Assembly: GCA_041476545.1 (NCBI GenBank)
Contig: JBGOTP010000003.1
Location: forward strand, 1-47,215
Source: Vicinamibacteria bacterium
GTDB lineage: Bacteria > Acidobacteriota > Vicinamibacteria > Vicinamibacterales > CAVVIG01
Length of the DNA stretch: 47,215 nucleotides
Direction of reading: 5' to 3'
This document shows, one piece after another, positions 1 to 10,007 of the stretch. A model generated the notes under the pieces. It had not been told where the DNA came from. It saw only the letters and a program-made list of their open reading frames with translations, and did not search any database. The translations under genes and the position numbers were made by a program. How positions within the stretch are numbered: position 1 is the first letter of the stretch; every line of letters begins with the position of its first letter.

Positions 1-796
1 AGACCGTCTCGCCGGTGAAGAGCTGGCGTCCGGTCAGGCACTCGTAGAGCACGCAGCCGAACGACCAGATGTCGGTGCGACGGTCGACGCTCTTGCCGCG
101 CGCCTGCTCGGGGCTCATGTAGGCGGCGGTGCCGAGGATCATTCCGACGCCGGTCATCTGGGCCGGCGTCGTGAGGGTCGGGGACATCGACAACCCACCT
201 GTCCCACCTGACCCACCCGGCCCCTCCGTCGCTTTGGCCAGTCCGAAGTCCAGCACCTTCACCGTGCCGTCGGGCCGCACTTTGACGTTGGCGGGCTTGA
301 GGTCGCGATGAACGATGCCCTGCTCGTGCGCCGCTTCGAGGGCGTCGGCGATCTGCTTCGCGATCGGCAGCGCTTCGTCGAGCGGGATTCCTGCTTGCCC
401 CGCCGAAGCGCCCGAGGCCCTTTGCCCTGCGATTCGTTGCGATAGATCTTCGCCCTCGACCAGTTCCATGACGAGCGCGCGCATGGCCGCCTGCCCTGAG
501 CCCGCCTGCCCTGAGCCCGCCTGCCCTGAGCTTGTCGAAGGGGTCGAAGGGCCGCTCTGGTGGATGCCGTAGATGGCGGCGATATTGGGGTGATTCAGGG
601 ACGCCAGCGTCTGCGCTTCGCGCGTGAACCGCGCCAGCCGATCGGGATCGTTGGCGAACGACTCCGGCAGGACCTTGATTGCGACGTCGCGATTGAGTGT
701 GGTGTCGCGCGCCCGATAGACCTCGCCCATCCCGCCGGCCCCCAGGGCAGAGAGAATCTCGTACGGGCCGAGGCGGGTGCCGGGGGTGAGGGTCAA
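1..796 (-). CDS. Hanks-type Ser/Thr protein kinase, 3' end truncated by the window edge (absent from the ORF track)
   Basis: My translation from TTG at 796 gives LTLTPGTRLGPYEILSALGAGGMGEVYRARD...VAIKVL...HRDLKPAN...DFGLAK...GTAAYMSPEQ...DIWSFG, i.e. the Gly loop, VAIK, HRD, DFG and SPE motifs. TATAAT lies on the minus strand at 816-811. Confidence 0.95.
   Translation of the reverse strand, partial: MTLTPGTRLGPYEILSALGAGGMGEVYRARDTTLNRDVAIKVLPESFANDPDRLARFTREAQTLASLNHPNIAAIYGIHQSGPSTPSTSSGQAGSGQAGSGQAAMRALVMELVEGEDLSQRIAGQRASGASAGQAGIPLDEALPIAKQIADALEAAHEQGIVHRDLKPANVKVRPDGTVKVLDFGLAKATEGPGGSGGTGGLSMSPTLTTPAQMTGVGMILGTAAYMSPEQARGKSVDRRTDIWSFGCVLYECLTGRQLFTGETV
194..229. repeat. 4 x 9-bp degenerate tandem repeat inside the kinase activation segment
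   Basis: cccacctgt/cccacctga/cccacccgg/cccctccgt; it encodes a Gly-rich stretch (EGPGGSGGTGG) after DFGLAKA. Confidence 0.7.
393..415 (+). repeat. Partial GCYTGCCCCGCCGAAGCG element, in frame in the kinase
   Basis: gcttgccccgccgaagcgcccga closely matches the minus-strand element gcctgccccgccgaagcgcgaga at 8893-8871. Confidence 0.7.
489..551 (+). repeat. Compound 63-bp element (GCCTGCCCTGAGCnn)3(GTCGAAGGG)2, in frame in the kinase
   Basis: Read directly from the sequence; it adds about 21 aa (PSTPSTSSGQAGSGQAGSGQA) between IYGIHQSG and AMRALVMELVEG. Confidence 0.9.
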
Positions 797-1144: not shown

Positions 1145-2251
1145 ATGACCGAAGGCGCAACGCTACGCACACGCATCTACGGCGCCTACGAGCGTCATGC
1201 GAAGGTGTGGGATGCGGCGTTCTTCGCCGGTGGCTTCGTCTTCGACGTCGTCGCGACGAGTCATGGTGTCGATCATCCGCTGTTAATCGTTCAGCAGGTG
1301 GTGTACCTGGGCGTCATCGGTGGGATTCTGTACGTGGACGTTCTGCGCGAGGCGCGACCCGAGGACACGACCTTCCCGCCACGACTCGAACGCCTGTGGT
1401 CGTACCGCAGTCTCGTGGTCCACTTCTGCCTCGGCACGCTGATGAATCTCTACTCGATCTTCTTCCTGATGAGCGCGTCGCCCTTCTCGTCCGTCGCGTT
1501 CGTCGCGCTGCTCTCCGGAGCCATCGTCGCCAACGAGCTCGAGGCCGTCCGGCGCCGCGGCGTCGACGTCAAGGTCGGGCTTTTTGCGATCTGCGTCTTC
1601 TGCTTCTGGTCCCTGATGATCCCGATCGTGGTCGGTCGCGTGGGGCTCCTGCCGTTTGTCGGCTCGTTTATCGGCACGCTTGGTTCCGTGGCCGCGTTCT
1701 ATGCCTTACTGCGACGTCGCCTGACTGCGACCGAGCTCAGTCTCCGGCTCGCCATGCCCGCCATCTCCGTGAGCCTCTGCTTCCTCGTGCTGTATCTCAT
1801 CGGCCTCATCCCGCCGGTTCCCATCGCCGCGAAGAGGCTCGGCGTGTACCACCGGGTCGAAAAGGTCGGCAACGACTACCTCTTGTCGCACGAACCGGTG
1901 GGATGGCGGTTCTGGCAGAAAGGGGATCAGACGTTCGTTGCCAGGCCAGGCGACAAGATCTACGTATTCGTGGCCGTGTTCTCGCCGGCCCGTTTCGACG
2001 ACACGGTGTTCGTGCGCTGGGAGCTGCGCGATCGGCGTGGCGAGTGGACAGTGGCCGACCGCCTCCCTCTCCACATCACCGGCGGGCGGCGCGACGGGTT
2101 TCGCGGATTCGTGAACAAGGAACGCTACTCCGAGGGCGACTGGCGCCTGACGCTCGAAACCCGGGATCGACGCGAAATCTCGCGCCTGTACTTCACCGTG
2201 ACGCGCGCCAATCCGGATCCGGCGCGCGTGTTCGTGGCCGACAGGTCCTAG
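1145..2251 (+). CDS. Multi-pass membrane protein with C-terminal DUF2914-like domain
   Basis: About 7-8 hydrophobic segments, then IPPVP...VFSPARF...ITGGRRDGFRG...GDWRL. The start was moved to ATG 1145 because the upstream part of ORF 560 is the kinase antisense shadow. Confidence 0.75.
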   Translation: MTEGATLRTRIYGAYERHAKVWDAAFFAGGFVFDVVATSHGVDHPLLIVQQVVYLGVIGGILYVDVLREARPEDTTFPPRLERLWSYRSLVVHFCLGTLMNLYSIFFLMSASPFSSVAFVALLSGAIVANELEAVRRRGVDVKVGLFAICVFCFWSLMIPIVVGRVGLLPFVGSFIGTLGSVAAFYALLRRRLTATELSLRLAMPAISVSLCFLVLYLIGLIPPVPIAAKRLGVYHRVEKVGNDYLLSHEPVGWRFWQKGDQTFVARPGDKIYVFVAVFSPARFDDTVFVRWELRDRRGEWTVADRLPLHITGGRRDGFRGFVNKERYSEGDWRLTLETRDRREISRLYFTVTRANPDPARVFVADRS

Positions 2252-5048: not shown

Positions 5049-5081
5049 TCGGGGAATTGCGGAATCCGGCAATCGGGGAAT
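5034..5081. repeat. 6 x 8-bp degenerate tandem repeat (approx. CGGGGAAT)
   Basis: cggggagt/tcggtagt/cggggaat/tgcggaat/ccggcaat/cggggaat; contains the stop codon of the glutaredoxin-like gene. Confidence 0.8.
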
Positions 5082-5091
5082 CGCGCTTGCA

Positions 5092-5168
5092 CTCCCTGCC
5101 CACCCGGCCTGATCCACCTGCCCCGCCTGCCCGCCCGCCCTGCCCGCCCTACCTGCCCGACCAGCCCT
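5092..5168. repeat. Degenerate ~9-bp C-rich tandem array (approx. CCCACCTGC)
   Basis: cccacccgg, tccacctgc, cccgcctgc, cctgcccgc, cctacctgc, ccgaccagc; the array ends at the pal stop codon. Confidence 0.75.
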
Positions 5169-8858: not shown

Positions 8859-8953
8859 CCGCCTACGCGCTCTCGCGCTTCGGCGGGGCAGGCTCCACGC
8901 TTTCGCGCTTCGGCGTGGCAGGCCCTTCGCTCGCGCGCGTGAGTGCGGCAGGC
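8858..8953 (-). repeat. Three GCCTGCC-headed hairpin units at 30-bp spacing forming the larE 3' end
   Basis: ggcaggc occurs on + at 8887, 8917 and 8947. The last unit is gcctgc-CCCGCC-gaa-GCGC-gaga-GCGC-gta-GGCGGG. Confidence 0.85.
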
Positions 8954-9762: not shown

Positions 9763-10007
9763 TCGTCGACGTCCTCATCCTCGTCGTCTTCGTCCTCGAC
9801 ATCCGCATCCTCGTCGTCTTCGTCCTCGTCGTCGTCTTCGTCCTCGTCCTCGTCCTCGTCGTCATCGTCGGCCAGATCGAGCTCGATCGGAGAGAGGCCC
9901 GTTATCTCCAGATTCGACCCGCAGTCGGGGCACGTCAGCTCATCGCCTTTGTCGACATCGAACTCATCGACTTCGATTTCGGCGTCGCATTCAGGGCAGG
10001 TGGCCAT
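9759..10007 (-). CDS. LysW-like zinc-ribbon protein with a long Asp/Glu tail
   Basis: MATCPECD...GDELTCPDCGSNLEI, followed by a run of about 35 mostly acidic residues; ATGA overlap with larE. Confidence 0.8.
   Translation of the reverse strand: MATCPECDAEIEVDEFDVDKGDELTCPDCGSNLEITGLSPIELDLADDDDEDEDEDEDDDEDEDDEDADVEDEDDEDEDVDE

Follow-up and report, generated by a model that had tools for sequence, protein, structure and literature searches.

A short GC-rich repeat inserted in frame in a loop of a Hanks-type kinase gene from a Vicinamibacteria bacterium

REPIN/RAYT systems are among the closest counterparts of the repeat considered here, and REPINs are lineage-specific and present in high copy number. 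Rickettsia palindromic elements (RPEs) measure approximately 100-150 bp and are confined to Rickettsia. In-frame repeat inserts have usually been regarded as peculiar to Rickettsia and to a small number of species rich in REPs. The accessible part of the report by Di Nocera et al. (2013, PMC3733652) describes GTAG- and CGTC-tagged REPs as short GC-rich stem-loops that are often arranged as inverted dimers and occur in several phyla. According to the same part of PMC3733652, RPE DNA lies in frame in genes that stay open, REPs are sometimes located entirely within ORFs, with more than half of the intragenic inserts being dimers or groups, and REPs within other palindromes are on record. In-frame REP-type inserts are already known. 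As far as an open-access literature search reaches, however, cross-phylum identity, a kinase-loop hot spot and matched-stem self-nesting of such a repeat have not been described.

The present analysis concerns an insert at the beginning of a 47,215-nt stretch of DNA (hereafter the window, meaning the whole stretch analysed), which is contig C3 of a Vicinamibacteria draft genome, G000 (5.29 Mb in 576 contigs, 64% G+C, 96% complete).

The kinase insert and its unit

At 2..796, the minus strand of the window encodes the N-terminal part (265 codons) of a Hanks-type Ser/Thr kinase (PF00069, 148 bits; PknB alignment). The frame is open at the contig start, i.e. the C-terminal part lies beyond the contig edge; full-length relatives are approximately 900 aa long and carry PD40/TolB-type C-terminal domains. 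Both HRDLKPAN and DFG, the Hanks-type signature, are present in the translation, and the frame aligns with Mycobacterium tuberculosis PknB (E 5e-45). One close kinase match carries the label Acidobacteriota.

Tandem Repeats Finder detected two perfect arrays on the plus strand: an L array with a period of 15 (487..531; unit CCGCCTGCCCTGAGC, 3.0 identical copies, 100% matches) and an R array with a period of 9 (534..551; unit GTCGAAGGG, 2.0 identical copies, 100% matches). A previous reading made from the letters of this DNA (the sequence-only reading) had parsed the insert as three L arms followed by two R arms, and the sequence matches that parse exactly. Alignments with paralogs and with PknB delimited 21 extra codons (PSTPSTSSGQAGSGQAGSGQA, residues 83-103; 488..550, minus strand), in keeping with the earlier statement that arm lengths of 15 and 9 preserve the frame. 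In the PknB alignment, the insert falls between AVYDTGEA and YIVMEYV, before LVMEL of the window kinase. In an AlphaFold2 model made from 43 aligned kinases (mean pLDDT 82.4), residues 75-81 and 105-111 form strands that are separated by a coil (pLDDT by block 67 and 57). Because the alignment and the predicted strands and coil agree, we place the insert in the beta4-beta5 loop, ahead of the LVME strand, where the sequence-only reading had put it.

The innermost 24-bp unit (519..542, plus strand) has the form GCCTG-CCCTGAGC-TTG-TCGAAGGG and includes the 19-mer core that our scans of the genome and of sequence collections recovered across phyla. Positions 504..551 (plus strand) are the 48-bp equivalent of a dispersed L2R2 module, as revealed by comparison of seven loci (see below). 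The three L copies were recovered with 0 differences in contigs of runs X1, X2 and X4, and the two R copies with 0 differences in contigs of runs X2 and X4; these runs may include the source sample of the window genome. Among the contigs of four runs, none had another number of L or R copies at the kinase locus, where most of the aligned pieces were other kinases and contigs cannot prove absence.

The same kinase domain holds further extra DNA. A second in-frame insert (GQRASGASAGQAG; 393..430, minus strand) is located between helices aD and aE and, in our alignments, is without counterpart in PknB and most relatives. It belongs to another dispersed repeat type, also found in paralogs C413 and C1, and is an approximately 18/20-base reverse-complement match to a 30-bp x2.4 tandem repeat at window 8868-8938, close to the beginning of a minus-strand frame of 780 codons. 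A 9-bp x2.8 repeat (193..217, minus strand; Tandem Repeats Finder, alignment and AlphaFold2) lies in a Gly-rich activation-loop extension (GGSGGTGG), which has a pLDDT below 50 over residues 191-221. Elsewhere in the window, positions 5049-5168 contain a CCTGCCC-rich array that resembles the GQAG runs of other paralog loops, and positions 9766-9869 contain a 15/30-bp TCGTCC-type simple-repeat array.

Comparison of kinase paralogs confirmed the existence of the 24-bp unit: the loop of paralog C322, which carries GCCTGCCCTGAGC-CT-GGCAAAGGG, is exactly 24 nt longer than that of its empty sister at C266:4701-4760. Over the loop baseline, the gain is 48 nt in paralog C487a and 63 nt in the window kinase; in C487a, a consensus-like 24-mer sits between the spacer and the R box of an outer unit resembling that of C322. 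The unit had also been described as an imperfect hairpin. However, the 24-mer folds no better than its shuffles either as DNA (-1.7 kcal/mol, z +0.23, 107 of 200 shuffles equal or better) or as RNA (z +0.96), and we rejected it as a stable hairpin on these grounds. A 7-bp stem with tandem G.A pairs, also proposed for the 24-mer, was conjectural, and the folding programs did not support it.

Units in G000 mostly adjoin an inverted copy, and such doublets fold as long hairpins, with z scores of -4.85 (C94), -2.45, -2.19, -1.84, -1.13 and -0.37 for the six that were folded, four of them at z <= -1.8. L and R are thus more aptly regarded as a pair of boxes within a single arm of a larger palindrome. 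The window copy stands alone as such an arm: no inverted partner was detected across the window when up to 2 mismatches were allowed. In other genomes, a frequent context of the unit is CCGTTCG-unit followed by inverted unit-CGAACGG. The unit measures 24 nt, its two parts 15 and 9 nt, and only one of its six reading frames is closed; insertions therefore usually leave a gene readable.

Occurrence of the repeat within and beyond the genome

The motif is not unique to the kinase locus; uniqueness would have refuted the sequence-only reading. The exact 19-mer core CCCTGAGCTTGTCGAAGGG has three occurrences in the 5.29-Mb G000. The unit pattern matched five times with 0 mismatches in G000 versus 0 times in the reversed genome, and 14 versus 13 times with 1 mismatch; because the latter counts are nearly equal, context is needed to separate true copies from chance. 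A 13-mer with up to 2 mismatches gave a count of 3, which does not exceed the shuffles (mean 2.27). Approximately 13 units with at most 1 mismatch were judged real by context, so that the copy number in G000 is low. Eleven of these are inside long open frames with a GC3 of at least 0.72, the frames being judged by stop-to-stop length and GC3 without a gene caller. Nine of the eleven are read antisense as P/S/T/G-rich, PST(S/G)SG-type peptide, and the remaining two give PE.VE. in the sense direction; the doublet C94 lies between genes.

The G000 hosts include ClpA (in the D1-D2 linker), a HemW/HemN-like radical-SAM enzyme, the C-terminal propellers of kinases and the linker of a molybdo-enzyme. 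The hemW insert of G000, ADPSTSSGSPRAKSRGD, corresponds to a decayed version in the same-genus genome G001, and the loop is short in ten other genera. At the same hemW site in G002 (locus L194), a different small hairpin repeat with the core GGACCTGATAAGGTCC is present in three in-frame copies. The same-genus ortholog of clpA shows gaps of 18 nt and 9 nt opposite the unit, but the linker has diverged too far to provide a clean empty site.

Outside G000, scans with the exact 19-mer picked up at least 125 stretches in a one-genome-per-species collection and at least 126 among viral contigs. A scan of metagenomes with the 24-mer, four positions being left free, gave at least 122. These counts support the earlier proposal of a dispersed, REP-like, non-autonomous element. 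The titles of the records with the 19-mer name Bacteroidota, Cyanobacteria, Patescibacteria groups, Actinomycetota, Pseudomonadota, Chloroflexota, Acidobacteriota and others; among the named groups are Paludibacteraceae, Leptolyngbyaceae, Microbacterium, Sphingomonadaceae, Dehalococcoidia, Nitrospirota, NC10 and Binatia. A 57-nt query had no match in a plasmid collection, and no Rfam family reached its gathering score at the G000 loci of the repeat. Sub-threshold matches to RF02901 were obtained for 16 of 20 repeat loci from other phyla (best 34.9 versus a gathering score of 97 bits), and the RF02901 consensus pairs the same boxes, CUGAgCUUGcCGAAG with UUCGgCAAGcUCAg. A Pfam search with translations of unit arrays returned nothing above threshold, and the DNA and peptide strings of the unit gave no relevant match among the papers listed in the open-access literature search. 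Broader literature queries brought up general work on REPs, RPEs and MITEs only.

Seven loci share the arrangement L(15)-L(15)-R(9)-R(9), 48 bp in length: the window kinase, C487a, C266b, a G286 kinase from another family of the phylum, the intergenic metagenome loci L228 and L243, and the TypA locus L252. The inner R box ends ..CGAATGG in five of the seven loci, and the outer one reads G.CGAAGGG in all seven; an L-L-R pattern was present in 2 of 401 sampled genomes. Compared with the module, the window copy has identical R copies and one additional, identical 15-bp L copy. At L252, the module is in frame in the gene for a TypA GTPase (WND-PSAHSTGSGQAGSGQA-TKINIIDTPGH) in AT-rich surroundings, and the nearest named relatives of this TypA are from Patescibacteria. 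Among the best 120 TypA matches, 61 had the baseline segment and 59 a longer one, many reading PSTGSGQA, although the protein searches for TypA and for kinase relatives were biased towards matches sharing the insert's words. The two-level L-L-R-R form travels as a module; since it is common to at least seven loci, it reached the window kinase ready-made rather than being built there.

Two of these loci have further features. At L228, the module is directly beside an apparent tRNA gene end in AT-rich DNA. In C266b (G000 C266:1601-2114, locus L037), a frameshift adjoins the L2R2 module at a (GTGC)x3 run and tblastn split the gene into two frames, pointing to a pseudogene or to an assembly or sequencing slip.

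The kinase loop, nesting and slippage

A tblastn search revealed 57 kinase HSPs in G000. The loop was covered in 42 kinase paralogs: the segment has the 60-nt baseline length in 23 of them, measures 48 nt in one and exceeds the baseline in 18; C266b is a nineteenth kinase with extra loop DNA, beyond these 42. The extra DNA belongs to five or more unrelated sequence types across the paralogs, several of which recur elsewhere (ABC ATPase linker, pirin, MsbA-like transporter and LeuRS). On G000 contigs C139, C36, C228, C208, C8, C210 and C166, for example, the repeat PPTR.ERSGEPRRSSPDISASEGG is in frame in kinase loops as well as in the linker of an ABC ATPase, a large oxidoreductase, a pirin-like protein and an MsbA-like transporter. 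A repeat of approximately 100 bp (..RLRPHRAE..GEVSASARAGGGAPAPLEE..) occupies the same kinase loop in G000 C1, C97, C68 and C440 and in L003 of the other-genus genome G013; the kinase rows that bear it form a starred clade within G000.

In a maximum-likelihood tree of 63 kinase domains, from which the insert columns had been dropped, the repeat type studied here needs at least three changes across starred branches, and the sister of the window kinase is an empty kinase of another genus (support 93/89). Monophyly of the eight bearers was rejected at a cost of 296.8 log-likelihood units (p-AU 2.3e-53), for a group that was chosen with the loops already known and that includes two divergent C228 rows; L022_1438, a C-terminal fragment, was excluded from this later test. 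DNA alignments of the paralogs showed that the insert is far better kept than its flanks. Neither a target-site duplication nor a target motif was seen when filled and empty paralogs were compared. Synteny did not yield an orthologous empty site, as four relatives gave no match to the membrane protein encoded next to the kinase (window 1145-2248).

It seems doubtful, on this evidence, that a single ancient kinase insertion was spread among paralogs by gene conversion in a loop that is no insertion target. In its favour, approximately 45 paralogs have short conserved blocks around the loop, and C487a and C266b share the module yet sit in different clades. However, high identity ends at the insert borders, the module also occurs in TypA and in intergenic DNA, units are also present in the single-copy genes hemW and clpA, and five unrelated repeat types are found at the same kinase loop. 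Some of the spread among the kinase paralogs may be due to gene conversion over short patches.

How the arms multiplied can be read from the diversity of the arrays. Kinase relatives (57 proteins, from the biased search) carry a single unit, L2R1, L1R2, L2R2, L3R3 or head-to-tail whole units, and differ by 9-, 15- and 24-nt steps. The (L,R) counts of 129 metagenome units were (1,1) in 112, (2,1) in eight, (1,2) in four and (2,2) in five. The L2R1, L1R2 and head-to-tail arrays in the relatives indicate that plain slippage also acts. In the metagenome collection, L211 consists of seven head-to-tail whole 23-24-nt units and is open in two frames, and L272 has five such units in AT-rich DNA.

Other arrays are organised as mirror images. 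Array L097 has six mirrored levels, namely CCCT/AGGG, CCTT/AAGG, TGGT/ACCA, TCCT/AGGA, CCTT/ACGG (partial) and CCCT/AGGG, with one spare R, and the middle level of array L135 is symmetrically truncated. A consensus inner unit is enclosed by outer stems of the ATCC/GGAT type or TTTC/GAAA in L086/87, L144 and L268 and in a composite shared by four viral contigs. In nested arrays, the inner unit is always between the outer L box and the outer R box. A strict parser reduced 417 cores to 23 distinct second-level composites, 12 of which have perfectly complementary outer stems. Among the 18 composites with non-consensus stems, seven were perfect versus a shuffle mean of 1.86, and 0 of 5000 shuffles reached seven; the other 11 are not perfectly complementary, and some are chance boxes from a loose parser. 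Mirrored compensatory stems are impossible by independent duplication of L and R, so that unit-within-unit organisation is real in the wider family. Both nesting and slippage act in the repeat family.

The window copy bears no such mark of nesting: every stem is CCCT/AGGG, and the counts are three L and two R. Because all of the stems are identical and the number of L copies does not equal that of R copies, self-nesting cannot be shown at this locus. The third L copy, which is identical to its neighbour and lacks an R partner, thus fits a local 15-bp tandem duplication. The sequence-only reading had explained the stacked arms by repeated insertion of the element into its own loop; self-nesting holds for the family, as judged from the mirrored complementary stems, but repeated self-insertion at this locus is not supported, since the L2R2 form was ready-made and the stems are identical. 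Three successive self-insertions followed by the loss of one R arm are accordingly improbable at this locus. Matched-stem nesting exists in the family, and C487a looks like a 24-mer set inside a C322-like outer unit. Nevertheless, L2R2 with the same internal signature was already complete on arrival, no difference separates the three L copies, even in the CC spacer, as would follow from a recent duplication, and an additional deletion would be needed to explain the two R copies. A counterpoint applies to nesting of the module itself, as L-L-R-R is equally makeable by two separate duplications (15 + 9 = 24).

We also regard it as unlikely that the insert was kept for a function, e.g. as a Ser/Thr-rich regulatory loop or an mRNA structure. 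The P/S/T-rich frame is used by 9 of the 11 intragenic G000 units, and a like peptide occurs in TypA of Patescibacteria relatives; however, selection against frames that contain stops or are hydrophobic would be expected to produce such a bias. The number of copies is free to vary among the kinase relatives, 24 of 42 kinase paralogs are without any insert, the mRNA segment with the insert folds no better than its shuffles (z +1.4 to +1.7), and AlphaFold2 gives a low-confidence coil. A purely local origin, in which a low-complexity coding stretch grew by replication slippage without any mobile repeat, is very improbable: both window arrays are perfect tandem repeats and the kinase relatives step by 9, 15 and 24 nt, but the identical 19-24-mer is found in unrelated genes, intergenic DNA, AT-rich genomes and viral contigs, and its presence as a GC-rich island in an AT-rich TypA gene rules out convergence at the peptide level.

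Proposed origin and comparison with known systems

We consider it fairly probable that the insert represents a single, unpaired copy of a tiny GC-rich repeat with a very wide distribution, which entered as a 48-bp module and then underwent a local L duplication. The unit comprises approximately 19-24 nt, made up of the L box CCCTGAGC, a 3-nt spacer and the R box TCGAAGGG, here preceded by a 5' GCCTG, and the usual structural form of the repeat is an inverted pair forming a long hairpin. The kinase would have received the 48-bp L-L-R-R form, which is best read as a unit centred in another unit, and a later local tandem duplication would have produced the third identical 15-bp L copy. Selection would retain only those insertions that fall in tolerant surface turns. 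Read antisense, the insert is a Pro/Ser/Thr/Gly/Gln/Ala coil between beta4 and beta5 and most likely a tolerated passenger of the kinase.

Movement of the repeat is possibly brought about by a single-strand transposase acting in trans or by phages, and the viral contigs with the repeat may offer a candidate vehicle, short of proof. A bolder interpretation, which we put forward tentatively, is that of a 19-24-nt mobile element that has crossed phyla, perhaps carried by phages, integrates preferentially into the middle of other copies of its kind, builds nested hairpin stacks and leaves coding inserts in kinases, TypA, HemW and ClpA, without a recognisable dedicated transposase. If this were true, the element would be among the smallest mobile sequences proposed, and it would make a tractable system for the study of short-DNA movement and of the lengthening of protein loops.

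Whatever its mode of spread, the tiny repeat has the same letters in a probable Acidobacteriota genome, in TypA genes of the Patescibacteria type and in viral contigs. Its inserts adorn beta-hairpin turns of conserved proteins, and it stacks in itself with matched stems. It also bears on the share of "low-complexity" sequence in bacterial proteins that is derived from repeats. On the practical side, the repeat breaks assemblies, seeds spurious ORFs and inflates the apparent diversity of kinase loops.

The repeat family resembles REPIN/RAYT systems in being non-autonomous and in forming inverted doublets that are long hairpins. It differs from them in its cross-phylum distribution, in its low copy number in G000 (approximately 13 units) and in the absence of a PF01797 gene. 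The sequence-only reading had suggested a RAYT or IS200-family Y1 transposase as a possible partner of the motif; a search for PF01797 (Y1 transposase) found none in the one genome searched, G000, a draft of 576 contigs and 96% completeness that may miss a gene, and the control was positive in 6 of 14 known genomes. REPs and REPINs are high-copy and mostly extragenic, whereas 11 of the approximately 13 units here lie in long open frames. Low copy number and a mostly intragenic location likewise separate the repeat from GTAG- and CGTC-tagged REPs, which it resembles in its small size, GC-richness, inverted dimers and spread over several phyla. Those REPs have a terminal GTAG or CGTC/TGTC tetranucleotide; the window unit begins with GCCTG and has no GTAG or CGTC tag, and a subset of copies elsewhere begins with (C/T)GTCA. 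Neither CTGAGC nor CGAAGG occurs in the text of PMC3733652.

With a 24-bp unit and no target-site duplication between filled and empty paralogs, the repeat also falls outside the definition of MITEs, which have terminal inverted repeats and a target-site duplication and measure 70-300 bp. RF02901 (AaHKsRNA41, Aggregatibacter sRNA 41) pairs its boxes alike, although it is an sRNA of one genus and the matches scored far below its gathering threshold. As in coding mini- or microsatellites, identical copies are arranged head to tail and their number varies among relatives; slippage would account for the third L copy, not for the origin of the unit.

The likeness to RPEs is that an in-frame insert leaves the gene open and adds peptide at tolerant places. 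By description only, RPEs differ in that the unit here measures 19-24 bp (48-63 bp as found), spans phyla, and occurs in viral contigs and nested arrays; the host of the window copy, moreover, is not Rickettsia. The closest parallel to the nested arrays is the REP within another palindrome, which is likewise a small palindromic repeat centred in a palindrome. In the cases on record in PMC3733652, the host palindrome has another sequence, whereas here the host is a further unit of the same superfamily, with up to six levels.
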